64,000 nt of DNA, from contig DFOU01000011.1 in assembly GCA_002376865.1 (NCBI GenBank), forward strand, positions 16,969 to 80,968. The letters run 5' to 3'. Below are positions 3,538-34,538 of this stretch, one piece after another (the first letter of the stretch is position 1; each line of letters starts with the position of its first letter). Source of the stretch: Patescibacteria group bacterium UBA3533. GTDB lineage: Bacteria > Patescibacteriota > Minisyncoccia > Phycocordibacterales > Phycocordibacteraceae. The notes under the pieces were generated by a model. The model did no database searches. It had not been told where the DNA came from and saw only the letters and a list, made by a program, of their open reading frames with translations. Both the position numbers and the translations under genes were made by a program.

Positions 3538-3538
3538 A

Positions 3539-5416
3539 TTAGTTACTTACTACTCCTTGTGCTCCAGTATATGACGGATCGTCTGTAATTGCAGTAGTTT
3601 TGGCTCCTCCTATGGTTTGTACGGTTGTTTGTGTGAAGCGGTCAAATCCTTCAAAGATTTGCTGCCCAACAACTTGGATTACATCTCCTGCTTGAGAAGA
3701 TTGCGGTGTAATACCAACCTGGAGTGCAACAGTCTTTGAAGAGTGCGCTGGAATCTCTCCAATATTCCACGATACTTCCCCTGTTCTCTCATCGTGAGTG
3801 ATAGCAGCTGAAAGTGGTGTCTGTGCTCCAGTAAATGTCGCATACGATGGCAATACAAATCGCACAGCAGAGTTTGCAATAGTATTTGTTGTATTTCCTG
3901 CAATCAATGTGAGCGTGTACGTGCTTAACTCCCCTGCCTTTGGTGGCCATGGTCCAATATTTGTAAATGGTCCTGTTGTTCTTGTGAGAGACGTAGCGAG
4001 AGATAGTGCTGACGCAACAGAGATATCACGCTCTACTTTATTCGTTACAGTAGAAGGAGCTCCGCTTCCAACTTCACGCCCTGAGACAGTTCCTACTATG
4101 TCGAGTGCTGGATTTCGAGCAGATCCAAGCTCGGCTGTTGTTTTTATAGGGAGCGTGAATGTTACGGTTCCACGCTCTTCTGGATCAAGTGTCGCAAGCT
4201 CTGAGTTTGTTTCCTTATTAAAGGTAATTGTTTTTGTTCCTGCATTATAGAATCCTCTTCCCGCTGAGATACGCGTTTCATCAAATGCATTTCCTGAGAA
4301 AGTAATAGTGATTTCTGCATCAAAGATCTGACTATCGAGATTATTTTTCCACGTAAGGCGCCCTGTTAGATCATCACCTGCATCCACGGTAAGAGATTCG
4401 CTTGCGTCCCCATCGAGAGACATTGAGACTGCAAGCTGACTATCTACGAGTGCAACTTTTACATCTTGCTCCATATAGATGAGTCCTAGGCTGTTTCCTC
4501 CAGGAGATAGATCAGTTCCAATATATGCATTAATAAATCTCTCATCTCCAGAGTTTCCTACAATGTCTCCTGTTATCGTTACTGTCTCTTTCTCTCCTGG
4601 CTTAAGGGTTCCAAGGTCCCACACATTATTTCCAATGTCTGCTGTTGGATTAGCATCGCGCACCGAATATCCAAATGGATACTCCAGAAGGAGCACTGCA
4701 TTGGGTACTGACTCTTCGGAATTTGTCTGCACCGTTATTGTTGTACTAAAACTCTCACCAGGAGCTACCTCCTCTGGTGCTGAGAGTGTTACGGCAAGCG
4801 GCGCACTCGTTATGATCACAGGATAGACCTCCTCCTTTACTACAATAGCGTTTGAGCTCTCTGGTCTAAATTCAATACGAAGTTTAATTTCCTTTTCCTC
4901 TCCCTCAGTTCCAAACAAGACTCCCTCAAAAGCTAACTCTTTCTTTTCTCCTGGCTTTAGAGGACCAAGTGAGAGAGTTTTGTATTGTAATTCGCGACTT
5001 ACATCGAGTGCATCACGTGTTCCTGTTGGGAATGTAACGGTAAGTTCCGCAAATGGAAGATTCACTGGGTTGGTGTTCTTTACCGTTGCTTGAATCAACA
5101 CACTCTCCCCCGATGCAATTGCTGGAGGGATCTCTACATTAAATTCAATGTTTTTAGGAGATACGGTTCGTCCTCCCTGCAGTACGAAAAATGCAGCAAT
5201 GATTATTGCGAGAGCAAAAAATCCTGCAGATCCCAGAAGGAACCATGTGGCATAGGGCTTGTGTGGTTTTTCTTCTTTTTGAACAGGAGGAGTCCATGCT
5301 TCTTGCTCAGTTGCTTCAGGTACTGTTGTTTTAACTTTTGGAGAAAATCCCCGCCTTGAGGCGGTTTTCTTATATAAATCAGTTCGTAGAGAGTCTAATT
5401 TACCCTTCTCACTCAT
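3539..5416 (-). CDS. membrane-anchored surface protein with repeated Ig-like (CARDB/DUF11-like) modules
   Basis: Internal start MSEKGKLD followed by a TM helix (FLLGSAGFFALAIIIAAFFVL). Repeated modules such as LGPLKPGEKKELAFEGVLFG and LGTLKPGEKETVTITGDIVG. Confidence 0.55.
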   Translation of the reverse strand: MSEKGKLDSLRTDLYKKTASRRGFSPKVKTTVPEATEQEAWTPPVQKEEKPHKPYATWFLLGSAGFFALAIIIAAFFVLQGGRTVSPKNIEFNVEIPPAIASGESVLIQATVKNTNPVNLPFAELTVTFPTGTRDALDVSRELQYKTLSLGPLKPGEKKELAFEGVLFGTEGEEKEIKLRIEFRPESSNAIVVKEEVYPVIITSAPLAVTLSAPEEVAPGESFSTTITVQTNSEESVPNAVLLLEYPFGYSVRDANPTADIGNNVWDLGTLKPGEKETVTITGDIVGNSGDERFINAYIGTDLSPGGNSLGLIYMEQDVKVALVDSQLAVSMSLDGDASESLTVDAGDDLTGRLTWKNNLDSQIFDAEITITFSGNAFDETRISAGRGFYNAGTKTITFNKETNSELATLDPEERGTVTFTLPIKTTAELGSARNPALDIVGTVSGREVGSGAPSTVTNKVERDISVASALSLATSLTRTTGPFTNIGPWPPKAGELSTYTLTLIAGNTTNTIANSAVRFVLPSYATFTGAQTPLSAAITHDERTGEVSWNIGEIPAHSSKTVALQVGITPQSSQAGDVIQVVGQQIFEGFDRFTQTTVQTIGGAKTTAITDDPSYTGAQGVVSN

Positions 5417-5615
5417 GTAGGAAACTATACCATTACTTAAGTATTTGTTGACAATAATTTTTAAATACAGCACCATCATTTTAGATCTGTGTACCTTGGC
5501 AGTGAAAGAGACTTGCAGTGTATGTATTTGGTCGAAAACCAAATATTATACGAGGCACGAACGGCCTCCATGCTCTCTGGCCACGAACGGCCGCACACAA
5601 GGTGGAGTACAACAA

Positions 5616-8085: not shown

Positions 8086-8116
8086 GCCGGCGGATTAGTT
8101 TCCGCCGGCTTTTTTT
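8086..8116 (+). terminator. intrinsic terminator (gccggcgg / ccgccggc stem plus T7)
   Basis: Perfect 8-bp GC stem followed by ttttttt. The stop codon of the convergent thermonuclease gene lies in its loop. Confidence 0.7.
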
Positions 8117-8874
8117 ATTCCTTTGTCTGCTGTCTGCCAAATGTTATTACACGCTGCACTTCTCTCGTATCCTGCTTCTAGCGCCTCTTCTTCAGTACAG
8201 AAATACTGCTCTCCTTTTCTTGGGTCTATCTTTACCCGCTTATAGTTAGGGCATCCTGGGAGGAAATAGTCTTTGGTATAACTCTTAGTTATATTTCCTT
8301 TAATTACACACTCCTTGGAGAAAGGATCGGCATCTTGCTCCCCCACCCTTGTTTCTTCTTGTATAGGGCAGCTATTCCAGAGTCCTACGTTATCTTCTTT
8401 TGCTTCTCGCTCATCTGCTTGCAGTTGACTTAAGTATGTTCTATTTGGTTGTACGTATACTTCTTTTGCATACCCCTTCTCTACCAGCATGCTGTTTACA
8501 AATAGATTGTCCTTCTCTGGGTCTTCTTCGTGTATGAAAACGTAGCGCAATAGCCTATCAAAGCTATCTTGTGCGGTTTGGTCCTTCTGCAAGAGTATTT
8601 CCTTTCCAAGGAGTGTCTTGGTTAGGTATTCCTTTGCTTCTTTCCCGTAGCAGGAGTTTAGCTCTGGTGCATCAATGTTTAAGAGTCTGATGCGGATGTT
8701 GTTTTCGATGATTATAGTGTCACCATCTACTACCTCTTCTACAAGGTGTGGTCTTTGTTCAAAGTTTGCACCATATACCTCATATGTTTTGTATACCTCG
8801 TACCCTCCGTATCCTCCTGCGGCTGCTACAAAGGCAAGTACTGCCATGATTACCTTGTGCGGGAGGGGTTTCAT
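8095..8874 (-). CDS. secreted thermonuclease (SNase-like) with Cys-rich C-terminal extension
   Basis: N-terminal signal/TM segment. DGDTIIIENNIRIRLLNIDAPE...YGKEAKEYL...RLLRYVF...NSMLVEKGYAKE matches the staphylococcal-nuclease fold motifs. Confidence 0.8.
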   Translation of the reverse strand: MKPLPHKVIMAVLAFVAAAGGYGGYEVYKTYEVYGANFEQRPHLVEEVVDGDTIIIENNIRIRLLNIDAPELNSCYGKEAKEYLTKTLLGKEILLQKDQTAQDSFDRLLRYVFIHEEDPEKDNLFVNSMLVEKGYAKEVYVQPNRTYLSQLQADEREAKEDNVGLWNSCPIQEETRVGEQDADPFSKECVIKGNITKSYTKDYFLPGCPNYKRVKIDPRKGEQYFCTEEEALEAGYERSAACNNIWQTADKGIKKAGGN

Positions 8875-8898: not shown

Positions 8899-9444
8899 CT
8901 ATTTAAAAGATACTGGAGTGAGTTTTGTTTTTTTAAAATCTTTATCTGCAGTAATAATTTTTTTTAATCCATCGTTTTCCATAACTGAAAGATGGAATGC
9001 ATCTCCTGGAGCAAGTCCATAATTTTTTATTCCTTCCAAGGCCCTTGGAAGATGCAGATGATCTAATTTAGAAAAACTAATATAGCCACCGCTTTGTAGT
9101 GAGTTTACTGTGACATCAATATTTCCACTGATTGCTTTATAAGAAAAGTTTATTTTGTTAAAAACTAACTTGAGAGTAATTCCAGAAAAACTTAATTTTT
9201 CTAAAATGGTATTTATTTTCCTAATTCCTGGCCTATTCCCCCTAATTCTATTTTGAACTTTTCTGACAACACCCAGAAGTTCATAGATACAAAGCATTGA
9301 GGTTTTCATATTGCACTCGTTGACCAAAAGCCATACAAGCATTTTCTGAGCCTTTACATGATCAGGGTGTTCTGGTATAGAAATTCCGGCAAGAAAATTT
9401 GCATCTAGAAAAACACTCTCTTTTTGTGCAATTTTTACTGCCAT
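8899..9444 (-). CDS. PIN-domain protein (VapC-like nuclease, enlarged 181 aa)
   Basis: N-terminal VFLDANFL (first acidic motif), internal IYELLG Glu, and C-terminal GDAFHLSVMENDGLKKIITADKDF (third and fourth PIN motifs). AT-rich. Confidence 0.6.
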   Translation of the reverse strand: MAVKIAQKESVFLDANFLAGISIPEHPDHVKAQKMLVWLLVNECNMKTSMLCIYELLGVVRKVQNRIRGNRPGIRKINTILEKLSFSGITLKLVFNKINFSYKAISGNIDVTVNSLQSGGYISFSKLDHLHLPRALEGIKNYGLAPGDAFHLSVMENDGLKKIITADKDFKKTKLTPVSFK

Positions 9445-9728: not shown

Positions 9729-10337
9729 TTAAATTTTATCAATTAAATCCTTAAACTTTAGAAATTCTTTAACGAAGTCTTTTTTTATAGATTCTATATC
9801 TGAAAGTCCGGAAGGGTAATGCACATTCAAATGCGCGAGATATTTTTTGTCAGCACTCACCGGCTTTATTTCAAACATATATTTTTTTTCTTCCTCTATG
9901 AAATTAATGCTGACACCCGCTTGAGACACATGAACTAAATTAGCAATTTTTTTACTAATTAAATCTTTAACCTCAAAAGAGTCTTCTGAATTCACCAGGG
10001 CATCAAAATTAAATCCGTAAGATGTTACTTTTTTTTGAGAGATGATACCTTTTTCGAAAAAAAGATTTAGATCTTCCATTATTGATGTTTCGGTTGGATC
10101 TTGAGAGCCCTTATCATTTATTAAAACCCTAACATTTTCAAAAACAAAATCTTTTTTTAAATCTGGAACAATAATAACTTTAATCCCCGGCCCCTCTATT
10201 GTTGAAGAGTTTAAATCTTTTTGCTTATTACTTTCTTTTAGAAGATCAACCACGGTTGATCCTGAGATAACCTTTTGTTCAAGCGGCTCAGAAAACAAAG
10301 TTGTAATATTTAGCCCTTTGATACTTTCTATTCTCAT
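9729..10337 (-). CDS. hypothetical protein (202 aa), first gene of the AT-rich PIN operon
   Basis: 3-nt gap to the next gene; very AT-rich (about 33-35% GC); no recognisable motif. Confidence 0.45.
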   Translation of the reverse strand: MRIESIKGLNITTLFSEPLEQKVISGSTVVDLLKESNKQKDLNSSTIEGPGIKVIIVPDLKKDFVFENVRVLINDKGSQDPTETSIMEDLNLFFEKGIISQKKVTSYGFNFDALVNSEDSFEVKDLISKKIANLVHVSQAGVSINFIEEEKKYMFEIKPVSADKKYLAHLNVHYPSGLSDIESIKKDFVKEFLKFKDLIDKI

Positions 10338-10370: not shown

Positions 10371-10886
10371 CTACAACCCCGCAGCCAAAATTCCCTTATT
10401 CACCTCAAGTATCAAATCTTCTGTTTTGTCTACGTTAGCCTCCTTGTCCGCATACCCAAGTGCAACAAGTATTTCAAAAGCAATCTCTGCCTCTTCCCTT
10501 TCAAAATCTATATCTTCCTCTCCTTTTACAAGCGCCTCTAACCTTTCATACACTTTTTGCTGCACCTCGTGCTCGGGTAACAATCTCCCCAGAAGACCAA
10601 GTATGTTTGCATATACTTTTTTACGCTCTCCTGTAAGGGTAAAGGAGTATTGCCGTACTTGATCCATTCCTTTAAGGCGCCAATTATATCTTCCACGAAT
10701 AAGAGAATAGATACTGTGTGTCCCAGGCTGCGTGCATGCAGCAAACGTAGCGCCCGCCCGCTTTGCAGCTTGTGCAATTACACGAATCTTTCCCAAGTCT
10801 TGGGTAAAGATAATTGCCTCTACAGAGTCTTCCTTATTGGGACGAGCTTTTAGTACGAATCCTGGAGTTGTGTACGTCTCATGCAT
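10371..10886 (-). CDS. recO: DNA repair protein RecO-like
   Basis: N-terminal OB-fold-like segment (GFVLKARPNKEDSVEAIIFTQDLGKIRVIAQAAKR); 171 aa, reduced form. Confidence 0.5.
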   Translation of the reverse strand: MHETYTTPGFVLKARPNKEDSVEAIIFTQDLGKIRVIAQAAKRAGATFAACTQPGTHSIYSLIRGRYNWRLKGMDQVRQYSFTLTGERKKVYANILGLLGRLLPEHEVQQKVYERLEALVKGEEDIDFEREEAEIAFEILVALGYADKEANVDKTEDLILEVNKGILAAGL

Positions 10887-13800
10887 GAACGACGTTTATC
10901 GTAAGTTGCTTCTCGCCAAGATCTACTTCTATTCCTCCAGGAAGCTCTTGTACGCGCTGGATAGTTTTAACTCCAGCAACACTCATAATTTCACTCTTGT
11001 ATGCATCTAGGAATGCTGCATTTCCTGCAATAGTTAGGATTGCAAAATCGTGTGGAGAGAAGTCCGCCTTCTTTCGTGCATCTTGTACCGCTCGTATAAA
11101 TTCTCGAACCATTCCCTTCTCCTTTAGCTCTGGAGTTAGTTCTGTATCAAGTTTAAGCTCTTCTCCATCGAGAATAATGTTCTCTACGTTTACTTCTTCC
11201 TTGATAAGAGCTTGGTATTCCTCTGTTAGAGAGATTCCTTTCTTTAGAGTGAGCGCATTGAGTGGCTGCCGTACTTTGTGCCCTGCAGTTTGTCGCATCA
11301 TAAGTGCATCACTTACGATAGTTCGTACTTCTTTCATAGTATCGAGTACTTCTTGGTCTATCTTCCCTGCTTCTGGCCAATCACATAGGTGTACACTCTC
11401 AGCATCACTCTCTTCTTTTAGTTCTCTATATAGATACTCTGCATAAAATGGCGTAGCAGGTGCCATTACCTTTGCAGTCTCCATAAGTACAAAGCGAAGT
11501 GTATGCATTGCATGCTCTGCATCTTCTCCTCCCTCTTTAATACGATCTCGAGAGCGCCTGACATACCATGTTGAAAGATCATCAAGGAAATCGAGAAGTG
11601 GGCGTGTGGCTTTATCAAATTCATATCCTTCATATCCTTTTGTTGTCTGATCTACAAGCTCATTTAGTCTTGAGATAATCCATGTATCAAGTACGTGCTT
11701 TGTTCCCTCTTTTCTCTGTACAGTGTCCTTATATAGATTGTAGAAAGAAAGTACGTTGTGCAGTCTTCCTACCACTTTTGAAGATGTTTCTTTTACACCT
11801 GCTTCTGAGAAAGAGAAGTCTTCTGCTCGTGATACAGGAGATGCGAGCATGTAGTACCGCACAGCATCTGCTCCATATTTATTGATTATCTCCATAGGAT
11901 CAGGATAGTTCTTGAGTTTCTTACTCATCTTCTGCCCATCCTCTGCAAGTACCGTTCCATTTACCACTACGTTTTCAAATGGTGCTTTTCCGAAGAGCCC
12001 TACGCCAAGAACGAGTAGTGAGTAGAACCACCCTCGTGTCTGATCGAGTCCCTCTGCAATATATTGTGCAGGATATCCCTTTGATTTACTAAAGAGTCCT
12101 CCCTTTGGATTAAATACATCTAAGTTGCTGTATGGATAGTTTTGCTGCGCATATGGCATTGATCCAGACTCAAACCAACAATCAAACACATCGAGGATCC
12201 GTGTGTACTCTTCTCCATCCTTCTCAAGCTTTATCTCATCAATATATGGACGATGGAAATCTAGCTCATAGTTTGCATTGTGTGGCAGCGCCACAAATGG
12301 AAGGTCCACTCGTGCTCCAGGCTCTGCGTGTGTCTTATCATGAATTTCCATTGAACGAGCACTGTTTGCTCCCTCAACAACTGCAGGAAGAATCTCCATT
12401 CCAATTCCATGCGTAACGATAAGAATCTTCTCATCTTGAAGCTGCGCTTCCTTCTCGTACATAAATTCTCCAAAGCGCTTCTTCACATCAAGGAAGCTCT
12501 CCCCTCCTGGGATAGTTGTCTCGTACGTGAAATCTTTCTCAATGAAATCAAAGTAATCTTTGATTGGCTTTCCTTGGAAATCTCCAAATCCAAGCTCGGC
12601 AAGTCGCTCATCAAAGACAACTTCGTCCTTTGAAAGGCCAATTTCTTCTGCAATTATTTCTGCTGTCTGCTTTGTTCGAAGGAATGGAGAAGCAAAGATT
12701 TTTGTAACTCCTTCTACTTTTAGCTTTGCGCCAGTCTCTTTTGCTAGCTTTACCCCTCTCTCAGTTAGCTTATACGGATCATCTTTATGTGCACTTACTA
12801 CATTTTTTACATTGTGCTCTCCCTCAGCGTGGCGCATTGCCATGTACGTGTTTCCTGACTTCTTTACGTGCGCCCGAAGATCCTCAACTCCACCCAATAC
12901 AATCTGATCTCCTTCTTCGTTCTCCCAGACAGGAAGAGGCGCTCCCCAGAAACGACTTCTTGAGATTGACCAGTCCTTTCCTCCCTTAAGCCAGTTACCG
13001 AATCGCTTAGATCCAACCTCTTTTGGCACCCAATGCACTTTGTCATTCTCCTTTACGAGTTGGTTCGTTATCTTTGGAGCGTTCACAAACCATGAGTCCA
13101 TCGCATAGTTTAGAAGCGGCTCATCTGTTCGCCATGAGTGTGGGTAGCTATGCTCAATCTTCTCTTTTTTGAAGAGTTTTCCAGCGTGTGCGAGCGCTTT
13201 GATGATTTCAATGTCAGTTGCTTGATGATTATCCTTTGGCTTTGCATCCATTCCGGCAAAGTCCCCTACTTCTTTTACAAACTTTCCACTCTTATTTACG
13301 TGGTGCACGATTGGCACACCTTCCTTTTGTGCAAGCTCAAGATCTTCTGCACCAAATGCTGGCGCTAGGTGTACTGCTCCTGTTCCAGAGTCTTCAGTTA
13401 CATAGTCTGCTGCATAGATTTTCCATGCATTCTCCTTCCCTTCTATCTCTTCGTTGAGGTAGTAGTTAAATGGAGGTTCGTATTCTTTCCCAACAAGATC
13501 CTTTCCTTTCATCTCTTCAAGGACTTCGTACTCCATTCCTTCAAAGAGTGAGAGTTTTTCTTTTGAAACAATGTACGTACCGTCTAGCTTTTCATCCCCT
13601 GTTACCTTTACCTTTGTATATACAAAATCAGGATTTACAGCAGCTGCCATGTTTCCAGGGAGTGTCCATGGTGTTGTGGTCCAGACAAGGAGTGAGGCGT
13701 TCATTCCTTTAATAGGTAGCGGTACTGTTACCGCAAAGTCTGTAATATCTTTATACCCTTGTGCTACTTCAATATTTGAAAGCTCTGTTCCCAGAAGTGG

Positions 13801-14337
13801 ACTTAGGTGGAGTGATTTAAATCCTTTATAGATAAGACCTTTATCATAGAGTGTTTTAAATGCCCACCACACACTCTCGGTATATGTTGGATCCATGGTT
13901 CGATAGTCATTGTCCATATCTACGAATCGTCCGATTCGCGGAATGAACTTCATCCAGTCATCTCTATACTGAAGCACTACCTTCTTTGCCTTCTCTACAA
14001 AGTTCTCAATTCCTACCTCTTCGATTATTTCCTGCTTAGTTGAAACACCAAACTCCTTCTCAACTTGTGCTTCAAGAGGAAGTCCATGACAGTCCCATCC
14101 CCAGCGACGCGGTACCGTATACCCCTTCATTGTCTTATACCGAGGAACAACATCCTTTAGAGTGCTCGCTAGTACGTGCCCATAGTGCGGGAGTCCTGTG
14201 GCAAATGGAGGTCCATCATAAAAAGTGAACGTCCCTTTGGGAGATTTTTTCTCTACAGATTTTTCAAAAATGCGCTCATTCTTCCAAAATTCCAGCATTT
14301 CTTCCTCTCGCTTCGAGAAGTCACTTTTGTCGCTCAT
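10879..14337 (-). CDS. ileS: isoleucine--tRNA ligase (type 2) with an inserted histidine-phosphatase (PGAM-like) domain
   Basis: PHYGHVL (HIGH), WTTTPWTLPGN (editing domain), KMSKKLKNYP (KMSKS), FGNWLKGGKDWSISRSRFWGAPLPVW. Unexpected segment of about 200 aa at nt 12259-12879 containing MRHAEGEHN, SPFLRTKQTAEII, GGESFLD..KRF and VTHGIGMEIL. Start taken at MSDKSDFSKREEEMLEFW. Confidence 0.9.
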   Translation of the reverse strand: MSDKSDFSKREEEMLEFWKNERIFEKSVEKKSPKGTFTFYDGPPFATGLPHYGHVLASTLKDVVPRYKTMKGYTVPRRWGWDCHGLPLEAQVEKEFGVSTKQEIIEEVGIENFVEKAKKVVLQYRDDWMKFIPRIGRFVDMDNDYRTMDPTYTESVWWAFKTLYDKGLIYKGFKSLHLSPLLGTELSNIEVAQGYKDITDFAVTVPLPIKGMNASLLVWTTTPWTLPGNMAAAVNPDFVYTKVKVTGDEKLDGTYIVSKEKLSLFEGMEYEVLEEMKGKDLVGKEYEPPFNYYLNEEIEGKENAWKIYAADYVTEDSGTGAVHLAPAFGAEDLELAQKEGVPIVHHVNKSGKFVKEVGDFAGMDAKPKDNHQATDIEIIKALAHAGKLFKKEKIEHSYPHSWRTDEPLLNYAMDSWFVNAPKITNQLVKENDKVHWVPKEVGSKRFGNWLKGGKDWSISRSRFWGAPLPVWENEEGDQIVLGGVEDLRAHVKKSGNTYMAMRHAEGEHNVKNVVSAHKDDPYKLTERGVKLAKETGAKLKVEGVTKIFASPFLRTKQTAEIIAEEIGLSKDEVVFDERLAELGFGDFQGKPIKDYFDFIEKDFTYETTIPGGESFLDVKKRFGEFMYEKEAQLQDEKILIVTHGIGMEILPAVVEGANSARSMEIHDKTHAEPGARVDLPFVALPHNANYELDFHRPYIDEIKLEKDGEEYTRILDVFDCWFESGSMPYAQQNYPYSNLDVFNPKGGLFSKSKGYPAQYIAEGLDQTRGWFYSLLVLGVGLFGKAPFENVVVNGTVLAEDGQKMSKKLKNYPDPMEIINKYGADAVRYYMLASPVSRAEDFSFSEAGVKETSSKVVGRLHNVLSFYNLYKDTVQRKEGTKHVLDTWIISRLNELVDQTTKGYEGYEFDKATRPLLDFLDDLSTWYVRRSRDRIKEGGEDAEHAMHTLRFVLMETAKVMAPATPFYAEYLYRELKEESDAESVHLCDWPEAGKIDQEVLDTMKEVRTIVSDALMMRQTAGHKVRQPLNALTLKKGISLTEEYQALIKEEVNVENIILDGEELKLDTELTPELKEKGMVREFIRAVQDARKKADFSPHDFAILTIAGNAAFLDAYKSEIMSVAGVKTIQRVQELPGGIEVDLGEKQLTINVVHA

Positions 14338-14363
14338 ATAAAGGATATAGTAGCAGGATGTAT

Positions 14364-14394
14364 AAAAAGTGAAAGACCGCACAATTGTGCGGTC
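14364..14394 (-). terminator. intrinsic terminator after the 14409-14660 gene
   Basis: gaccgcaca / tgtgcggtc stem followed by tttcacttttta on the minus strand. Confidence 0.6.
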
Positions 14395-14408
14395 CTCCCC
14401 AAAGATCA

Positions 14409-14660
14409 TCAAGCGGCTTGCGAAAGCCAGACATGGCCGGTGCCATTTTGCTGACGCCTCAGTCCACGTGCATTTAAAAATGCATCTTGAATGGAGACAT
14501 CGACCTGGCCTGGATCGGTGATGGTAATAACCGAACCTTCCATGGGGATCAATCCCTCCTTTTCACAGTGAATTTCAACAGGTCCCTTTTTCAAGAGCTT
14601 GTTGATGTCGCGCGCGAGCGTGCGCTGCGCACTTGGCCCATATGGACGACATTTCGACAA
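14409..14660 (-). CDS. small hypothetical protein (83 aa), GC-rich
   Basis: TTG start preceded by AAGGGAGGAGTG, its own terminator, about 50% GC. No recognised domain. Confidence 0.45.
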   Translation of the reverse strand: MSKCRPYGPSAQRTLARDINKLLKKGPVEIHCEKEGLIPMEGSVITITDPGQVDVSIQDAFLNARGLRRQQNGTGHVWLSQAA

Positions 14661-14710: not shown

Positions 14711-14743
14711 CAAAAGGAAAAGGTCGAGTATTAACACTCGACC
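14711..14743 (-). terminator. intrinsic terminator overlapping the 3' end of the 14731-14940 gene
   Basis: ggtcgagt / actcgacc stem with the stop codon in the loop, then ttttccttttg on the minus strand. Confidence 0.6.
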
Positions 14744-14940
14744 CCTCCCCGACGAATGAAGTGTGCGCGAAGCTGTTGGATTTCTACATCACGGGCAGAA
14801 TCCCCTGGCGGCGGAATAAATATCCCTGGAGCTTTAGTGCCTGTCTTTCTAACACGCACGTTGCCTACGTTGCCATTTAAATACTCAACACACTCTTCGA
14901 TTGTCGGGAAGTCCAGTTCAGGAATTTCTTTACTGGACAT
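14731..14940 (-). CDS. small hypothetical protein (69 aa), GC-rich, monocistronic
   Basis: AAAGGAGGAGAGA then ATG; extended -10 (TGcTATAAT) about 33 nt upstream; own terminator. Confidence 0.45.
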   Translation of the reverse strand: MSSKEIPELDFPTIEECVEYLNGNVGNVRVRKTGTKAPGIFIPPPGDSARDVEIQQLRAHFIRRGGVEC

Positions 14941-14969: not shown

Positions 14970-14985
14970 TAAATTATAGCACCCT
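14970..14985 (-). promoter_or_regulatory. extended -10 promoter element (TGcTATAAT) for the 69-aa gene
   Basis: Minus-strand gtgctataat immediately downstream of the argS stop. Confidence 0.45.
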
Positions 14986-16615
14986 ACATCTTCTCTGGAG
15001 CCTCTATTCCCAGAAGCCATAGTCCGTTTGTCATCGTTAGGACAAATGCCTCAATAAGCAGAAGTTTGTATCCCTCATACTCTCCTCCAAGGATCTTCTC
15101 TTTTGCATAGAAACTATTAAATTCAGAAGCAAGTTCTGTTAGGAATCCTGTTACGTGGTGTGGCTCATACTTTTCTTGTGCACGAGCAACAACCTCTGGG
15201 AATCTATACAGAATCTTCTCAAGATCATATGGCTGCTCTGGAGCAACTGCATCTGCATCATCTTTTGAAGAGTCAGCAAGGATTTTCTTTGCTCGTACGA
15301 GAGCGTACTGCAGATACGGCCCTGAATCTCCCTCGGTAGAAAGTGAGTTGTTTACATCAAAGACAATGTCTCCTCCTGGCTGCTGCCGCAGAATACTGTA
15401 CTTAATTGCAGCTACTGCTACTTTCCGTGCAGTTTCTTCATCAGAATTCTGCTCTTTTACTTTCTCTACAAGATTATCGATAAGAGACTTCGCCGTTACG
15501 ATATCTCCTGTTCTTGAGCTCATCTTTCCTTCAGAGAGCTTCATCAAACCATTTGAAAGGTGCGTGATCTTTTCTGCCTGCTCTGGATGAATCTCAGAGA
15601 GAGCTTCCTTGATTACCTTGAAGTACTCTGCCTGCTCTTTTCCAGTTAGGATGATCGATTGATTGTGCTCCCACCACTCGTCCTTGATAGTTTCAAGCCC
15701 AAGCTCCTTTGCTTCATACGTTGGTGTTCCCTGCTTTGTTTTAAATACTCGAGTATGTAGCCCCTTCTTTTCTCCCTCATATACGATAGCTCCATCACTC
15801 TCTACGAAAACTCCTTTTTTAATTCCTTCCTCTACCACCTTCATTCCAACAGGCGCTGACTCACTTTCGAAAATAAATCGATCTAATTTTATATCTAAAG
15901 TATCAAGAACTTCTTGCACTCCTTCTATTGAAATCTTCCTTCCTTCCTCATGCTCTTTCATGAGATCTTTGTCTTCTCCTGCATAGATAGCTTTATTGAG
16001 TGTATCTATCTCTTCTTTTGCAGATTCATTCTCTTCGTATTCTTTTGCACCAAGAGCATATGCTTCTCCAATTACAGCAGGAGAGAGCTCTTTCCCAAGT
16101 TTTCGCAGTCCATAGATGGCCTTTGCAGCATGTGGCCCCACATCTCCTCCATATGATTCCTTTTTAACTTCTGCTCCAGAGAATTGGAGAAGCCGTGCAA
16201 TAGATTCTCCAATAGTTGCCCCCATAAGGTGCCCAATGTGAAGCTGCTTAAATGCATTAGCATTTACATACTCCATGATCACTTTGTGATCTACATTATT
16301 AGTATTGCTTCCCCACAGCCTACCGAGTGATCCAATTACCTTAAGAGATCCCGTGAAGAACTCACGAGAGAGTTTGAAGTTAATAAACCCAGGACCTGCA
16401 ATAGATACTTCCTCCACAAATGGAAGGTCAATCTTTTTTACAATCTCTTCTGCAAGTTCCTTTGGATTTACTCCCCGCTCTTTAGCAAGAGTCATGGCTA
16501 TGTTTGTTGCATAGTCTCCATGACTTAGATCTTGAGGGTGCTCAAGATGTACTGAAGAAGCCTCCACATCTGCTGCGGCAGCTACTGCTTTTTGTAGTTC
16601 TTTTACGAGATCCAT
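14984..16615 (-). CDS. argS: arginine--tRNA ligase
   Basis: 543 aa, class I HIGH region (ANAFKQLHIGHLMGATIGESIARLL); ArgRS-like N- and C-terminal architecture. Confidence 0.8.
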   Translation of the reverse strand: MDLVKELQKAVAAAADVEASSVHLEHPQDLSHGDYATNIAMTLAKERGVNPKELAEEIVKKIDLPFVEEVSIAGPGFINFKLSREFFTGSLKVIGSLGRLWGSNTNNVDHKVIMEYVNANAFKQLHIGHLMGATIGESIARLLQFSGAEVKKESYGGDVGPHAAKAIYGLRKLGKELSPAVIGEAYALGAKEYEENESAKEEIDTLNKAIYAGEDKDLMKEHEEGRKISIEGVQEVLDTLDIKLDRFIFESESAPVGMKVVEEGIKKGVFVESDGAIVYEGEKKGLHTRVFKTKQGTPTYEAKELGLETIKDEWWEHNQSIILTGKEQAEYFKVIKEALSEIHPEQAEKITHLSNGLMKLSEGKMSSRTGDIVTAKSLIDNLVEKVKEQNSDEETARKVAVAAIKYSILRQQPGGDIVFDVNNSLSTEGDSGPYLQYALVRAKKILADSSKDDADAVAPEQPYDLEKILYRFPEVVARAQEKYEPHHVTGFLTELASEFNSFYAKEKILGGEYEGYKLLLIEAFVLTMTNGLWLLGIEAPEKM

Positions 16616-16624: not shown

Positions 16625-17875
16625 CTATACAAAAATCTGCGGAATGGGAAACTTTTCACAAAGCTCTTCCACCTTTTTCCGCACCTCCCCTGCTTTGCTT
16701 GTGTCTTTTAGTACTTCAACCATCCACTGCGCTACCAACTTACTTTCAGCTTCTTTAAACTTTCTTGTTGTTATAGCTGGTGTTCCAAACCTGATTCCAG
16801 ATGGATCAAGTGGTGGACGAGTATCGTCCGCAATAGCATTTTTATTAAGCGTAATACCTGCCTCATCAAGCGCATGCTCAGCCTCTGCTCCTGTAATGCC
16901 AAATGAAGTATGTACATCAAGGAGTATGAGGTGATTGCTTGTCCCTCCTGTTAGCATTCTTGCTCCAGCTTCCTTAAACACTTCCTCCATTGCCTTTGCA
17001 TTTTTAATTACCTGCTCTGCATATTCTTTAAACTGTGGGGTTAGTGCTTCTCCAAAGCACACTGCTTTTGCTGCAATCTGATGCATATGAGGACCACCCT
17101 GGAATCCTGGGAACATTGCCTTATCTACTTTCTTTGCAATTTCTCCCTTCTCTCTTATGAGGATCATTCCACCTCGAGGTCCTCGAAGAGTCTTATGTGT
17201 CGTTGTAGTCATTACATCAAATCCATAATCAAATGGATTCTCGTGTGCTCCTCCTGCGATAAGCCCTGCAATATGCGCCACGTCTGCTACCGTGTACGCA
17301 CCAACTTCATCTGCAATCTCTTTAAACTTTTTCCAATCAAGTTCTCGTGGATATGCTGAGAATCCTGCAAGGATAATTTTTGGCTTCTCTTTTAGAGCTA
17401 CTTCTCGAAGCTCGTCATAATCAATCTCCCCTGTCTCTACATCCTTCATCTTGTACCGTACAAAATTAAAGATCTTTGCAATTGCTGTAACAGGGTGCCC
17501 ATGTGTTAGATGCCCTCCATGACTTAGGTCCATTCCGAGCACCGTGTCTCCTGGCTCAAGCAAAGCAAAGTAGAGTCCAATGTTTGCATTTGCTCCTCCC
17601 AAGGGCTGTACGTTTGCGTGCTCACACTTGAAGAGCTTCTTTGCTCGCTCAATAGCAAGCAATTCTACTTTGTCCGTAAATTCTTGTCCGCCATAGTATC
17701 GCTTTCCTGGATACCCTTCTGAGTATTTATTGGTTAGTACTGAAGACATCGTCTCTCGCACTGCAGCAGATACATAGTTCTCAGACGGAATGAGTTCAAG
17801 ACCTTTATCCTGTCGCTCCTCTTCCCCTTCGAGAATCTCTAGCACTTCTTTGTCCTGTTTTTTTAGATATTCCAT
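16625..17875 (-). CDS. glyA: serine hydroxymethyltransferase
   Basis: LELIPSENYVSAAVRETMSSVLTNKYSEGYPGKRYYGG and the PLP-lysine region TTTTHKTLRGPRGG. Confidence 0.95.
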   Translation of the reverse strand: MEYLKKQDKEVLEILEGEEERQDKGLELIPSENYVSAAVRETMSSVLTNKYSEGYPGKRYYGGQEFTDKVELLAIERAKKLFKCEHANVQPLGGANANIGLYFALLEPGDTVLGMDLSHGGHLTHGHPVTAIAKIFNFVRYKMKDVETGEIDYDELREVALKEKPKIILAGFSAYPRELDWKKFKEIADEVGAYTVADVAHIAGLIAGGAHENPFDYGFDVMTTTTHKTLRGPRGGMILIREKGEIAKKVDKAMFPGFQGGPHMHQIAAKAVCFGEALTPQFKEYAEQVIKNAKAMEEVFKEAGARMLTGGTSNHLILLDVHTSFGITGAEAEHALDEAGITLNKNAIADDTRPPLDPSGIRFGTPAITTRKFKEAESKLVAQWMVEVLKDTSKAGEVRKKVEELCEKFPIPQIFV

Positions 17876-17876
17876 A

Positions 17877-18278
17877 TTATTTTTTACATTTACATCCCTT
17901 TAAATTTGCTTGGTATAAAATTGCGTTTGGATCTTTTACGAACTTCCCATCAACCAACTCTCCTGTACGTGAATTAATTTCTTTGCATACCTCTTCCATT
18001 ATTGCCGCAGGCTCATATCCCTGCTTCTTGAGTGCCCCGATGGCAAAAACAATAATGTCAGCCCACGCATCTGCAATTTCTTCTTCTGGTGCCTCTGTGT
18101 CGCCAACAATTTCTTCTGCATAGTGAGCGGCGCGCTCTCGTGCAGTTACACTGTCATACTTCCCAGTGCTTTCTAGAAGCTCTTCAAGAATAAATGAGGT
18201 TTCTTTTTTGTGATTGAATCCTTTCTCGAGAAGCCCTCGCTCTTTATTCCAATCAATTATGTTTTCAAATACATTCAT
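17877..18278 (-). CDS. MazG-like nucleoside triphosphate pyrophosphohydrolase (all-alpha NTP-PPase)
   Basis: ELLESTGKYD...YAEEIVGDTEAPEEEIADAWADIIVFAIG with spaced acidic residues typical of the MazG/dimeric dUTPase fold. Adjacent to dut. Confidence 0.5.
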   Translation of the reverse strand: MNVFENIIDWNKERGLLEKGFNHKKETSFILEELLESTGKYDSVTARERAAHYAEEIVGDTEAPEEEIADAWADIIVFAIGALKKQGYEPAAIMEEVCKEINSRTGELVDGKFVKDPNAILYQANLKGCKCKK

Positions 18279-18281
18279 AAG

Positions 18282-18713
18282 TTATTTTCCAGTACTTCCA
18301 AAGCCCCCTTCTCCTCTCTCTGTCTCATCCAAAGATTCAACTTCCTCAAAATCAGCGTGCGCAACTTCTTGCAAAAGCATTTGCGCCACCTTATCTCCCA
18401 CATCAAAGGTGTGCGCCTCTGTTCCGTGATTGATGATACCCACTTTTATCTCTCCCCTATACCCAGCATCAATAACTCCCCCGAGCACTTTAAGTCCTCG
18501 CTTTATTGCATTTCCGCTCTTATCCCAGATAAGGCCCACATACCCTTCAGGAATCGCCATAGCAAGTCCTGTTGGCACAGCCTTATATTCTCCTGGACTG
18601 ATAGTTACACCTTCTGTGCTACAAAGATCCATTCCAGCATCATCACTGTGAGCAAACTCTGGCACTTTGGCTGCCTCATGGAGTTTCTGTACTTGTATCT
18701 TGAGCTTCTTCAT
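18282..18713 (-). CDS. dut: dUTP diphosphatase
   Basis: AGMDLCS...SGNAIKRGLKVLGGVIDAGYRGEIKVGIIN...GDKVAQMLL, the classic trimeric dUTPase motifs. Confidence 0.9.
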   Translation of the reverse strand: MKKLKIQVQKLHEAAKVPEFAHSDDAGMDLCSTEGVTISPGEYKAVPTGLAMAIPEGYVGLIWDKSGNAIKRGLKVLGGVIDAGYRGEIKVGIINHGTEAHTFDVGDKVAQMLLQEVAHADFEEVESLDETERGEGGFGSTGK

Positions 18714-18748
18714 ATCTGGATGTTCTGCTGTTTAGTTTCTCTATTCTA

Positions 18749-19441
18749 TCACGCTCTATTTTTTAGGATATTTTGCACCAGAGCCCATAATTCCTCATGA
18801 ATATCTTCCCGTGTTCGAGGCTTTCCACGCTGCGCACACGCAATTCTGTACCAAGCATTTAATTTCTTAACTATTGAAAGTGCTCTCTTTCGAGAATTTT
18901 CTTGGTATTCAAGACTCTCTTCCGTTGCGTCTTTCTTTCCTTTTGTATATTCCTTTCCTTTCTTTGCTTCTTTTAGGAGTTCTGCGGCAACTTTAACTGG
19001 CATGTCTAAATAGATAATGGCATCGGGGCGCGGAATTTTAAAAACACCATGTTCCATCTCATCAAGCCATGTAAGGAATGTTTTTAGTTTCTTTGCGTCT
19101 TGGATTTTCCCTCCTTGATGTATTTGGTTTGCACTTACATACCGATCAAGAATCACGGTATATCCTTTTTTCATCCAGTCTTCTATTTTCTTTTTTGATT
19201 CAAACCTATCTGCAGCATACAAAACCGATGCAATGTGCGGATCAGTCTTTAGGAAATCTCCATGGTCTCCAACAAGACACTCTCCTATTAGCTTCCCAAA
19301 GAAATTATTTTCGTAGTGAGGGAAATCCAGAGTACGTACAGGAATCTTTTCTTTTTTTAGACGTTTTAGAAGAAGTTCCGTTTGCGTTGCCTTTCCACTT
19401 CCATCTCCGCCATCCAGTACTATCAGTTTTCCGCGCTTCAT
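18749..19441 (-). CDS. tmk: thymidylate kinase
   Basis: P-loop GKLIVLDGGDGSGKATQ; about 230 aa. Confidence 0.85.
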   Translation of the reverse strand: MKRGKLIVLDGGDGSGKATQTELLLKRLKKEKIPVRTLDFPHYENNFFGKLIGECLVGDHGDFLKTDPHIASVLYAADRFESKKKIEDWMKKGYTVILDRYVSANQIHQGGKIQDAKKLKTFLTWLDEMEHGVFKIPRPDAIIYLDMPVKVAAELLKEAKKGKEYTKGKKDATEESLEYQENSRKRALSIVKKLNAWYRIACAQRGKPRTREDIHEELWALVQNILKNRA

Positions 19442-19498
19442 ATTGGAGCAATTGTACCTTATTTTGTTAATTTTTGAGCGTGGTAAAATTCTCTCTAT

Positions 19499-20344
19499 AT
19501 GAAGAAATATCTGAACCTGTTAGACGACGTATTAGAAAATGGAGTAGACCGAGAAGGACGAAATGGAACAACCCGTGCAGTCTTTGCACGCCAAGCCCGC
19601 TTCAATCTAGAAGATGGCTTCCCTGCAGTTACTACAAAGAAACTTGCCTGGAAGGCAGTAGTGTCTGAGCTCCTTTGGTTTATCGAAGGTTCAGGAGACG
19701 ATAATCGTCTAAAAGAAATTCTAGGGAAAGATAAAACCATCTGGAGCGCTAATGCGAATGCTGACTACTGGAAACCAAAGGCAAAATTCGATGGAGACCT
19801 TGGACGAGTGTACGGCGTGCAATGGAGATCTTGGCAAAAGCCCGATGGAAGTACAGTAGATCAATTGGCTGAGGTTATCGAGCGCATTAAAAATGATCCC
19901 TATGATCGAAGATTAATCGTAAGCGCTTGGAATCCAGGAGAGCTAGACCTTATGGCACTTCCTCCTTGTCATATGTTCTTCCAGTTTTTTGTAACTCCAG
20001 ATGAGTCTGGGAAGCCTGCAAAACTGTCACTGCATATGGTGCAACGAAGTTGTGATCTGTTCCTTGGAGTTCCATTTAACATTGCATCGTATGCCCTCCT
20101 TCTTTCTATGGTGGCGCAAGTAACGGGACTTAAACCATTTGAGCTTGTTATGAGCTTTAATGACCTACATATATATGGGGATCATATGGATGCAGTAAAG
20201 GAGCAGTTGAAGCGAGAGCCTATGGACCTCCCTACTCTTAAGCTTAATCCTGATGTTAAAAATATTGATGATTTCACAATGGATGATATTGAACTAGAAG
20301 GCTACAAATCGCACGACACCATAAAGGCAAAGATGGCGGTGTAG
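19499..20344 (+). CDS. thyA: thymidylate synthase (ThyA type)
   Basis: LLWFIEGSGD, RVYGVQWRSW, IVSAWNPGELDLMALPPCHMFFQFFV (catalytic Cys). Confidence 0.95.
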   Translation: MKKYLNLLDDVLENGVDREGRNGTTRAVFARQARFNLEDGFPAVTTKKLAWKAVVSELLWFIEGSGDDNRLKEILGKDKTIWSANANADYWKPKAKFDGDLGRVYGVQWRSWQKPDGSTVDQLAEVIERIKNDPYDRRLIVSAWNPGELDLMALPPCHMFFQFFVTPDESGKPAKLSLHMVQRSCDLFLGVPFNIASYALLLSMVAQVTGLKPFELVMSFNDLHIYGDHMDAVKEQLKREPMDLPTLKLNPDVKNIDDFTMDDIELEGYKSHDTIKAKMAV

Positions 20345-20368
20345 AATATAAAAGGAAAGGAGACGATT

Positions 20369-20899
20369 ATGGCTATCAAAATCATTGCAGCAATTGGAGA
20401 TAAGCGTCTCCTGGGAGTTGTTAAAGACGGAAAGCATGGTCTTCCGTGGCGAATTCCTGAAGACTCAAAACATTTTAGCCACAGCACAAATGGTGCGGTA
20501 GTTATTATGGGAAGATCTACATGGGAATCTTTGCCAGATAGGTTTAGGCCTCTTCCGGATCGAACAAACTTTGTTCTTACAAGAAATCCTGATTATAGAG
20601 CAGAGGGCGCTAGAGTTTTCCCTGGTCTACATGAAGCACTTGAGGTTGCAGAAACTTTAAGTGACAAGACCATTTGGATTATGGGAGGCGCTAGCATCTA
20701 CGAGCAGGCACTCCCTATCGTCGATGAACTCTCTCTTACAATTGTAGAGGAAGAGCTCCTTCCTCCACCAATGGGAGGAGAGGAGCGCATTCTCTTCCCA
20801 GAGTACGAGCATCTTTTTGAATGCATAGACTCAACTCCTCGCATGCGCTCAGACAATAAAAATATTCCATACCGCTTTCAAACTTGGAAGCGAAAATAA
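20369..20899 (+). CDS. folA: dihydrofolate reductase
   Basis: IKIIAAIGDKRLLG...GLPWRIPEDSKHFSHSTNGAVVIMGRSTWESLP; AAGGAAAGGAG RBS. Confidence 0.9.
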   Translation: MAIKIIAAIGDKRLLGVVKDGKHGLPWRIPEDSKHFSHSTNGAVVIMGRSTWESLPDRFRPLPDRTNFVLTRNPDYRAEGARVFPGLHEALEVAETLSDKTIWIMGGASIYEQALPIVDELSLTIVEEELLPPPMGGEERILFPEYEHLFECIDSTPRMRSDNKNIPYRFQTWKRK

Positions 20900-30162: not shown

Positions 30163-30237
30163 TGGGGCGGCCAGAGAGAATCGAACTCTCGATGTCGGTA
30201 CCACAAACCGAAGTTTTGCCACTAAACTATGGTCGCC
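30163..30237 (-). tRNA. tRNA-His (anticodon GTG) with genomically encoded G-1 and CCA
   Basis: Hand-folded: 5' G(-1)GCGACCA..., D arm GTTT/AAAC, anticodon loop TTGTGGT, T-loop TTCGATT, 3' ...TGGCCGC C CCA. Confidence 0.8.
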
Positions 30238-30265
30238 ATGTGCTGCATTTATACCAGCTGTATTA

Positions 30266-30295
30266 AAAATAGTCGAGCTTCCTCGACTATTTTTA
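30266..30295 (-). terminator. symmetric terminator downstream of rplS
   Basis: aaaaatagtcgag cttc ctcgactattttt. Confidence 0.65.
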
Positions 30296-30315
30296 ATTGA
30301 TAGAAAAAGTTGAAA

Positions 30316-30912: not shown

Positions 30913-30977
30913 GGCGCAGAGAATAGCAATTGTACCTATAAAAAGCAAGCGCGATTCCTAAAAATCGCGCTTTTACT

Positions 30978-31316: not shown

Positions 31317-31351
31317 TACTCTCTCCTTTCAATCTGACTTTTTAGAAAGTA

Positions 31352-33019: not shown

Positions 33020-33076
33020 ACATGCGAGTGTATCACTCTTGCAGAAAAAGCAGTAATTGCGTATGCTCCTTTGTAC

Positions 33077-33152: not shown

Positions 33153-33157
33153 AAGAG

Positions 33158-33192
33158 AAACCGCACATCATAACGATGTGCGGTTTTCTTAT
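33158..33192 (+). terminator. bidirectional terminator (aaccgcacatc / gatgtgcggtt)
   Basis: 11-bp stem followed by ttctta. Confidence 0.65.
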
Positions 33193-34537: not shown

Positions 34538-34538
34538 A

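Follow-up and report, generated by a model that had tools for sequence, protein, structure and literature searches.

Why should an isoleucyl-tRNA synthetase carry a second enzyme inside its own catalytic core? Aminoacyl-tRNA synthetases are among the most conserved of all enzymes, and the accessory domains of the bacterial ones almost always serve editing or tRNA binding. The question is raised by the ileS gene in a stretch of 64,000 nucleotides (hereafter the window) from Patescibacteria group bacterium UBA3533, contig DFOU01000011.1. This gene, at 10879..14337 on the minus strand, encodes 1152 amino acids (aa) plus a stop codon, giving a type-2 (eukaryote/archaea-like) isoleucyl-tRNA synthetase (IleRS) with a nested domain. 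The nested domain, encoded at 12262..12876 (minus strand) and comprising aa 488-692, is a branch 1 histidine phosphatase of the compact PhoE/CobC/PspA-like type, as assigned with the Pfam family PF00300, AlphaFold2 (AF2) models and Foldseek. An unrelated, apparently active enzyme is thus lodged within the catalytic core of a synthetase, a feature invisible in public annotation, where these proteins are called 'class I tRNA ligase family protein' or 'isoleucine--tRNA ligase'.

The host enzyme itself is complete. An earlier note, made from the sequence alone, had described a continuous ileS frame bearing the landmarks of IleRS, and every motif that it quoted is indeed present in the order that it gave. 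The open reading frame (ORF) runs unbroken over 10879..14412 on the minus strand and would give 1177 aa if begun at a TTG. Because the methionine encoded by the ATG at 14337 is invariant in an alignment of 121 homologous sequences, translation most likely starts there, giving 1152 aa. On this numbering PHYGH occupies aa 50-54 (14176-14190), WTTTPWTLPGN aa 219-229 (13651-13683), WSISRSRFWGAPLPVW aa 456-471, HRPYIDE aa 695-701 and KMSKKL aa 803-808 (11914-11931). The protein scores 863 bits against the NCBIfam equivalog model for ileS, TIGR00392, well over its cut-off of 621, and Pfam finds tRNA-synt_1 split in two, Anticodon_1 at 884-1026, DUF5915 at 1032-1150, and His_Phos_1. With subdomain borders taken from PMC7955072 and PMC7191050, aa 1-487 (12877..14337, minus), which align to residues 9-488 of yeast IleRS, hold the first half of the Rossmann fold, the connective peptide (CP) core, the CP1 editing domain, CP2, the CP2-CP3 linker and the first strands of CP3. 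The remaining host part, aa 693-1152 (10882..12261, minus), aligns to yeast residues 498-896 and contains the rest of CP3, the second half of the Rossmann fold, the KMSKK loop, the stem-contact fold, and the anticodon-binding and C-terminal domains, the last two matched by Anticodon_1 and DUF5915.

Structure prediction agrees with this assignment. The AF2 model of full-length IleRS has a mean predicted local distance difference test (pLDDT) of 92.9 and a predicted template modelling score (pTM) of 0.87, and Foldseek gives target-normalised TM-scores of 0.84-0.91 against IleRS2 (8c8v), 1ile and 8wnd_B, so that IleRS2 and eukaryotic IleRS emerge as its nearest solved relatives. The full set of domains and motifs is held in common with the type-2 enzymes of Priestia megaterium (IleRS2, 8C8V), Thermus thermophilus (1ILE) and yeast (7D5C/8WND), at sequence E values of ~1e-195 to 1e-210. 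Against the models of the mupirocin-resistance enzymes MupA and MupB the window protein reaches 638 and 693 bits, short of their cut-off of 1900. We conclude that the host is a complete type-2 IleRS of a Paceibacteria-type Patescibacterium, and the conservation of its motifs and fold, together with a host ratio of nonsynonymous to synonymous substitution rates (dN/dS) of 0.03-0.11, suggests that it is functional in both aminoacylation and editing and probably serves as the IleRS of the cell.

What, then, is the guest? Its membership in branch 1 of the histidine phosphatase superfamily is secure. The earlier note had read the insert as an in-frame domain like phosphoglycerate mutase (PGAM) with a full catalytic signature, and hidden Markov models, structure prediction and alignment now agree on this, with the general acid newly placed at E581; the span that it gave, 12259-12879, was right to within one codon at each end. 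PF00300 (His_Phos_1) matches aa 501-660 of the whole protein at E = 2.3e-28 and the excised 205 aa at E = 9e-30, with 104.2 bits over a gathering threshold of 21.7, so that the absence of such a match, which the note had named as grounds for abandoning its reading, did not materialise. Modelled alone, the domain reaches a pLDDT of 95.5 and a pTM of 0.92. Its nearest folds in Foldseek are CobC (6e4b/6nru), PspA (4ij6), PhoE/YhfR (1h2e/1ebb), TIGAR, Rv2419c and phosphoglycerate mutases (PGMs), at E values of ~1e-13 to 1e-11 and 21-29% identity; against CobC, PspA, PhoE, TIGAR and PGM the probability is 1.00 and the TM-score 0.65-0.75.

The catalytic residues of the domain are intact, and by this token it is apparently an active enzyme. 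Four motifs follow one another in the expected order: MRHAEGEHN (aa 501-509), SPFLRTKQTAEII (aa 550-562), GGESFLDVKKRF (aa 611-622) and VTHGIGMEIL (aa 641-650). The RHAEGEHN loop (12811..12834, minus) contains R502 and the nucleophile H503 (12829-12834) as well as N509 (12811-12813), and aligns with the RHGE..N loop of PhoE (1H2E) and of Schizosaccharomyces pombe PGM (1FZT). R554 of the SPxxR motif (12676..12678, minus) is the second arginine of the phosphate pocket, and H643 of the THG motif (12409..12411, minus) is the second catalytic histidine; R502, H503, R554 and H643 are each invariant in 121/121 sequences. The predicted general acid, E581 in the DxRLxE...G motif (12595..12597, minus), is kept in 118/121, and N509 in 117/121. 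The third residue of the RHG loop, position 504, is glycine in 104 sequences and alanine in 17, the window having A504. We also considered E613 of the GGES motif (12499-12501, minus; 120/121) as the general acid. It was ruled out on alignment to PhoE and PGM, which places E581, within 'DERLAELGFG', opposite the glutamates of PhoE 'RLREIHLG' and PGM 'NERYYG'; E613 belongs to a separate conserved GES motif. None of the NCBIfam equivalog cut-offs tried is reached by the domain (dPGM_arch 86 versus 225 bits, CobC 74 versus 163, GpmB 66 versus 261, PspA 58 versus 350, SixA 29 versus 74.5), and since it lies below all of these specific cut-offs, no substrate can be transferred to it by homology.

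The site at which the domain is lodged can be defined to within a few residues. In the alignment to yeast IleRS (8wnd), query residues 6-487 correspond to chain residues 9-488 and query residues 692-1069 to 498-896, so that ~204 residues stand in for a CP3 loop of ~9 residues (yeast ~489-497). Alignment to the solved IleRS structures thereby bears out the earlier claim of about 200 extra residues between GAPLPVW and HRPYIDE of a type-2 IleRS. In Saccharomyces cerevisiae, CP3 comprises residues 459-526, and the preceding CP2-CP3 linker, 453-ARDWNVSRNRYWG-465, lines a pocket common to reveromycin A and the CCA end of the tRNA (PMC7955072). The window's counterpart of this linker motif, WSISRSRFWGAPLPVW, is encoded at 12925..12972 (minus); its yeast equivalent lines the CCA-end (reveromycin) pocket, and the insert begins only 16 residues past it, nested within CP3. 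Candida IleRS is laid out as in S. cerevisiae, and the CP3 of Thermus IleRS has a zinc motif, whereas the yeast and Candida enzymes do without one and need no insert in its place (PMC7191050). The window IleRS also has no CP3 zinc knuckle. Among insert-bearing proteins only 1/121 has at least three cysteines in CP3, and the insert-less relatives that have a free-standing phosphatase as partner (see below) keep the CxxC...CxC pattern.

Two linkers join the domain to its host, and both are well defined. The N-terminal linker (aa 488-496, ending in KKSGN; 12850..12876, minus) runs from the CP3 hairpin into phosphatase strand 1; its N496 never varies, S494 is kept in 111/121 sequences and G495 in 107/121, and the mean entropy is 1.48 bits. 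The C-terminal linker (aa 681-694, F.P.PHN..YELD; 12256..12297, minus) leads back to HRPYIDE of CP3. With an entropy of 1.01 bits, against 0.90-1.12 in the flanking host, it is the best-kept non-catalytic segment of the insert, and its residues F681, P685, H686, N687 and D693 are at least 97% conserved. In the full-length model both linkers have a pLDDT of 95-96. Variation within the insert is greatest in the distal helices, at 2.87 bits, and in the cap, at 2.65 bits. At 0.42-0.45 GC, the insert matches the composition of the remaining gene.

This architecture is no peculiarity of one genome. As the earlier note had proposed to check, the insert is conserved in related genomes: PF00300 is present in all 120 of the best full-length homologue clusters, at 51-97% identity, which carry names such as Wolfebacteria, Kaiserbacteria, Pacebacteria, Parcubacteria and 'Patescibacteria group bacterium UBA2103'. 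With two insert peptides as query against GTDB, each species represented by a single genome, 33 independently assembled Patescibacteria loci emerged with collinear IleRS N-terminal part, phosphatase and IleRS C-terminal part, including the complete chromosome CP174360. W471 and H695 are 221-230 residues apart throughout the 121-sequence alignment. In the closest genome, UBA2103, the host part is 98-99% identical and the insert 92%. The nested architecture is therefore lineage-wide, across a major part of the Patescibacteria.

Selection maintains the insert, which nevertheless diverges more quickly than its host. Mean pairwise identity is 41% for the insert versus 61% for the host, and across the pairs compared the nonsynonymous rate (dN) of the insert is 2.5-4.9 times that of the host. 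Between the window and the related loci L035 and L037 (locus labels are ours), dN/dS is 0.105 for the insert versus 0.029 for the host and 0.218 versus 0.106, respectively. The insert is clearly under purifying selection, though it changes more quickly than the enzyme around it. At one locus, L010, the host halves are 85% and 73% identical and the insert 46%. A swap of this insert for a foreign copy was considered and rejected, the insert/host dN ratio of 3.7 falling within the 2.5-4.9 of the other pairs; faster evolution is enough to account for the divergence.

Where did such a domain come from? When the insert profile was run against 1.84 billion representative proteins, it matched 323 clusters at E <= 1e-30, and the profile matches include a coherent group of complete proteins of ~190 aa, at ~1e-46 to the insert profile and ~40-46% identical to the nested copies. 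At 5/5 informative loci the gene for this free-standing phosphatase adjoins an ileS without the insert. It lies immediately upstream of, and on the same strand as, an insert-less ileS of 931-955 aa in L038 (5001-5573), L039/L040 (L039:5001-5570), L042 (4001-4588) and L043/L044 (L043:1158-1739), with the gene order argS - phosphatase - ileS - recO in L039, L042 and L043; in L039 only 3 nucleotides (nt) separate argS from the phosphatase gene and 1 nt separates the latter from ileS. In L041 the phosphatase gene (2107-2679) follows argS and abuts a convergent ileS. The IleRS beside a free-standing phosphatase keeps the Cys4 zinc knuckle of CP3, and none of the loci examined combines a nested with a free form. 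Neither the 570-bp gap between argS and ileS nor the whole window contains a second phosphatase gene or a relic of one.

The window shows the same synteny as these loci, argS-ileS-recO, with the phosphatase inside ileS. The upstream neighbour, argS (14984..16615, minus), is matched by Pfam Arg_tRNA_synt_N, tRNA-synt_1d and DALR_1, and downstream lies a RecO_N-domain protein of 171 aa (10371..10886, minus; Pfam RecO_N, E = 1.6e-11). In related loci argS stands upstream of ileS in ~21/33 and a recO homologue downstream in ~22/33. The nested domain thus represents, in fused form, the small phosphatase gene that adjoins an insert-less ileS in other Patescibacteria. Gene neighbourhood and gene fusion are classical signs of functional partnership, and because the phosphatase is fused inside ileS here and is a free gene beside insert-less ileS elsewhere, it is a dedicated partner of the synthetase. 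Taken together, fusion and neighbourhood provide strong genomic evidence linking the phosphatase with tRNA charging.

Some smaller observations concern these loci. The start of the RecO_N ORF overlaps the stop region of ileS by 8 nt (10879-10886), which suggests translational coupling, and the RecO-like protein matches the N-terminal RecO domain only. The 570-bp spacer between argS and ileS contains two ORFs on the gene strand, at 14409-14660 (minus, 83 aa from a TTG) and 14731-14940 (minus, 69 aa from an ATG), each with a GGAGG-like ribosome-binding sequence ahead of it; Rfam models run over the window detected neither a leader nor a riboswitch near ileS, and none matched in the spacer. In L041, ileS (2685-5609, minus) is called as adjacent ORFs of 412 and 554 aa, divided at about 410-420 of the ileS model, so that IleRS may be truly split here, or else a frameshift or an error in sequencing may be responsible. 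Many profile matches of 655-712 aa begin exactly at the phosphatase domain and run through the C-terminal half of IleRS; these could be split genes or partial calls.

The window protein is one of a family of class Ia synthetases with nested hydrolases. The phosphatase domain also occurs at two more sites in IleRS, one between CWFESG and KMSKS and one after KMSKS, and two-copy IleRS proteins with the domain at these sites are represented by P0192, P0216, P0230, P0275 and P0178, of which P0192 is found on several contigs, up to 1.06 Mb long. A full-length valyl-tRNA synthetase (ValRS), P0273, has two copies, the second at a CP3 site homologous to that of the window, and the ValRS fragment P0134 has four. 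All copies in these multi-copy proteins retain the catalytic residues; over all contexts, the R-H-R-E-H set is kept in 140/154 ungapped domain copies, or in 152/154 if aspartate is allowed as the acid. Despite a free gene lying 1 nt upstream of ileS, a simple N-terminal fusion was seen in none of the best 150 profile matches, and this absence suggests that the internal position is favoured by selection. Between its two phosphatases, P0273 has a segment of ~240-295 residues (~627-870) whose only family match is a sub-threshold one of 22.2 bits (cut-off 27) to LPD13, a domain known from the 'polyvalent proteins' of phages and plasmids.

A second hydrolase joins the first in one lineage. In L003 (4782-8904) and L001 (4300-8449), both on the plus strand, TGA codons occur in frame at the positions of invariant glycines, a sign that these organisms use genetic code 25 and would be Gracilibacteria or Absconditabacteria. 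Read in code 25, their IleRS is a single ORF of ~1370 aa, whereas standard-code calling gives 4-5 ORFs, and it contains both the CP3 phosphatase and a NUDIX domain with a perfect Nudix box, placed directly before WTTTPW at the base of the editing domain. The combination of tRNA-synt_1 with NUDIX recurs in ~15 more clusters. Genes for NTPase_I-T, MazG and a YfbR-like HD protein lie near ileS in the code-25 loci. Pfam finds no NUDIX domain in the window IleRS.

How do these proteins compare with systems already described? Unlike the solved type-2 enzymes, the window IleRS has a ~204-residue enzyme domain in place of the ~9-residue CP3 loop, and unlike the Thermus-type IleRS it is without the CP3 zinc knuckle. 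The nested domain shares its fold, its size of ~200 aa and the R-H-N-R-E-H set with PhoE/YhfR (1H2E, 1EBB), CobC (6E4B, 6NRU) and PspA (4IJ5/6). However, those are free-standing enzymes with defined small-molecule substrates, and the nested domain scores below their NCBIfam cut-offs, has an unconserved cap, and has termini that have been turned into conserved IleRS linkers. MutT1, with an N-terminal NUDIX and a C-terminal RHG phosphatase, resembles the L001/L003 IleRS in having both hydrolases in one polypeptide. Yet MutT1 is a two-domain protein without a synthetase, the two hydrolases of L001/L003 are nested separately at two IleRS sites, the code-25 NUDIX matches the MutT1 model only weakly (21.5 bits against a cut-off of 475), and the window protein has no NUDIX at all. 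The RNase H/acid phosphatase of the Rv2228c type (NF005567) is a CobC-like phosphatase fused to a nucleic-acid-handling enzyme, and the insert matches the phosphatase half of its model at E = 5.5e-17; that protein is a terminal fusion to another partner, and with a score of 62 against a cut-off of 326 the insert is not a member. A curated IleRS with an extra enzymatic domain, an N-acetyltransferase, does exist (ileS_w_GNAT, NF040702), but the window protein does not belong to it (306 bits against 1999, and no Pfam GNAT match).

The likeness to other hydrolytic modules is one of logic only. The CP1 editing domain of IleRS, ValRS and LeuRS is a hydrolytic module built into an enzyme of the tRNA 3' end, as is, by analogy, the HD-domain phosphatase found in the Escherichia coli CCA-adding enzyme; such modules put a faulty end right, either ahead of the main reaction or following it. 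Unlike these editing and repair modules, the nested domain has a predicted chemistry of phosphomonoester cleavage via phospho-histidine. Our full-text searches of the literature found no description of a phosphatase within IleRS; a survey from 2026 of how IleRS domains evolved is silent on any phosphatase and on this phylum, and a preprint on host defence against Patescibacteria refers to a tRNA synthetase only as the pheS counter-selection marker. What is unusual is the combination rather than the host, an ordinary type-2 IleRS, or the guest, an ordinary branch-1 phosphatase, and this architecture is apparently undescribed, though the proteins sit in public databases.

What might a phosphatase do within a synthetase? 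That it is an active phosphatase functionally coupled to IleRS we consider very probable. By the chemistry known for the family, H503 of the RHG loop would attack a phosphomonoester to form a phospho-histidine intermediate, R502, N509, R554 and H643 would hold the phosphate, and E581 would protonate the leaving group. Given that the cap is poorly conserved and both linkers are conserved like the host, we infer that the host IleRS supplies the specificity and that the phosphatase acts on something at, or passing, the active-site region. The variable cap, the always-internal position and the anchoring beside the CCA-pocket linker together suggest a substrate bound at the synthetase. The substrate that we prefer would be the acceptor end of a tRNA bearing a 2'- or 3'-phosphate, or a pyrophosphate, so that end-healing would be coupled to charging and a tRNAIle that cannot be aminoacylated would be de-blocked on its own charging enzyme. 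In the code-25 lineage, the nested NUDIX would act first, reducing a pyrophosphate to a phosphate, and the histidine phosphatase second. Such a block is put on the tRNA end by toxSAS toxins, which are tRNA-specific (PMC11559606).

We hold this proposal with different degrees of confidence in its parts. In its broader form, it says that Patescibacteria have de-blocking enzymes built into their class Ia synthetases, a histidine phosphatase and, in code 25, a NUDIX as well, which would strip a toxin-installed or damage-derived (pyro)phosphate from the CCA end or from the KMSKS loop of the synthetase itself; this we put forward tentatively, as plausible but somewhat short of probable. De-blocking of the tRNA end as the specific role of the phosphatase is possible, though we regard it as doubtful. 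Several points weigh against it. We know of no branch-1 histidine phosphatase that acts on RNA ends, and the nearest folds of the domain in Foldseek are all small-molecule enzymes. The domain is slightly acidic on average, with a net charge of ~-5.5, and neither net charge nor isoelectric point reveals a systematic basic character that would hint at RNA binding in the nested or the free forms. Arrays of 2-4 intact domains, and the use of several sites, are not predicted by a precise cis-repair geometry. No toxSAS or tRNA-end-modifying enzyme turned up in these genomes, although no search was aimed at them. In most lineages, the window's included, the phosphatase occurs without NUDIX, and the published IleRS-tRNA structures that we consulted describe no contact between CP3 and tRNA. 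Were the proposal true, a charging enzyme would repair its own substrate or itself, which would be a third kind of synthetase quality control beside amino-acid selection and editing. A substrate that is a phosphorylated tRNA end or a phosphorylated synthetase would mean a new layer of repair or immunity in translation; one that is a nucleotide would illustrate the way in which very small genomes fit metabolic functions into proteins that are essential.

Among the alternatives, two deny the domain a catalytic role or even its existence. The earlier note had named an assembly or sequencing error as what would undo its reading. For a chimera or misjoined gene no supporting point was found, the architecture being merely unusual, and the same in-frame arrangement in 120/120 top homologue clusters from independent sources and in the 33 GTDB loci, the absence of any compositional break, the conserved junction linkers and the confident single-chain model effectively refute it. 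The note had also suggested a degenerate domain co-opted structurally, which can be rejected on the invariance of the catalytic residues and a dN/dS of 0.1-0.2. A related idea is that the domain is purely a structural stand-in for the lost CP3 zinc knuckle, its catalytic machinery being irrelevant. The reciprocal pattern of cysteines would fit, with CxxC...CxC kept in insert-less IleRS that has a free partner and at least three cysteines in only 1/121 insert-bearing proteins, as would a domain that evolves 2.5-5 times faster than its host in dN. But yeast and Candida IleRS need no insert in the absence of the zinc motif (PMC7191050), the six catalytic residues are invariant or nearly so in 121 sequences, at the other sites and in ValRS, and a free-standing form exists; with selection at a dN/dS of 0.1-0.2 besides, we judge this very improbable. 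Another alternative is a metabolite sensor, which would bind and slowly turn over a phosphorylated metabolite and thereby tune aminoacylation allosterically, coupling translation to the energy or nutrient state in organisms poor in regulators. Allostery would be feasible given the rigid, conserved linkers and a single body modelled with confidence (pTM 0.87), the phosphate-binding residues are invariant, and the insertion in CP3 lies beside the CCA-pocket linker. Against this, the nucleophile and the general acid are as strictly kept as the binding residues, which speaks for catalysis, the cap that should specify the ligand is variable, and the free-standing operon form could not act allosterically unless docked on IleRS. 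We know of no precedent in the histidine phosphatase family and think a sensor quite improbable.

The other alternatives accept catalysis and differ in the substrate. The phosphatase may act on a diffusible phosphomonoester, such as AMP or another nucleotide from aminoacylation, side-products such as diadenosine polyphosphates, or non-canonical nucleotides, working with NUDIX where that is present, and its attachment would give constitutive stoichiometric expression or local removal of product. All of the nearest structural and sequence relatives (CobC, PspA, PhoE, TIGAR, Rv2419c, PGM) are small-molecule enzymes, 2-4 intact copies at several sites suit dosage or tethering better than precise geometry, a free-standing form exists, and the neighbours of ileS in the code-25 loci include genes of nucleotide house-cleaning (NTPase_I-T, MazG and YfbR-like HD). 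Mycobacterial MutT1, NUDIX plus RHG phosphatase, acts on 8-oxo-(d)GTP and diadenosine polyphosphates, although the activity of its RHG domain itself is stated as unknown (PMC11784022). However, the cap that shapes the substrate site is among the least conserved parts, so that no specific pocket is preserved, and the domain falls under every NCBIfam equivalog cut-off. A diffusible substrate also leaves the exclusive association with IleRS and ValRS without a reason and fails to account for an always-internal position, never a simple terminal fusion, or for linkers as conserved as the host. We regard it as unlikely, if a serious contender. A built-in protein phosphatase would instead clear a phosphate, placed by a Hip-type kinase toxin, from the serine of the KMSKS loop (S805 in KMSKK) or from another active-site residue. 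The superfamily includes the protein phosphatases SixA, PGAM5 and Sts-1. HipA and HipT inactivate the class I synthetases GltX and TrpS by phosphorylating S239 of KLSKR and S197 of KMSKS, respectively (PMC6581861), and in IleRS the three insertion sites (A, B and C) bracket the KMSKS loop in sequence and S805 is at least 90% conserved. A variable cap with conserved linkers would suit a tethered macromolecular substrate. MutT1 dephosphorylates proteins too, but its activity on NDK was mapped to the NUDIX rather than the RHG domain (PMC11784022). Moreover, to devote a whole domain to one residue of its own chain is wasteful and multiple copies would serve no purpose, and site C, past the stem-contact fold, is probably far from the KMSKS loop. 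To our knowledge no kinase targets IleRS or ValRS, and these genomes were not searched for one; on balance we find this role improbable.

The remaining genes of the window surround the argS-ileS-recO unit. Downstream of ileS-recO lie a 202-aa ORF matched by no Pfam family (9732-10337), a PIN-domain protein (8902-9444, minus) and a staphylococcal-nuclease-like protein (8098-8874, minus). Upstream of argS, a one-carbon and thymidylate cluster occupies 16628-20896, with genes for serine hydroxymethyltransferase (16628-17875, minus), thymidylate kinase (18752-19441, minus), thymidylate synthase (19499-20341, plus) and dihydrofolate reductase (20369-20896, plus). Farther along, Rfam identifies six tRNA genes over ~13 kb (30166-43465), at 30166-30236 (minus), 33077-33149 (plus), 34110-34181 (minus), 38428-38515 (minus), 39583-39654 (plus) and 43393-43465 (plus).

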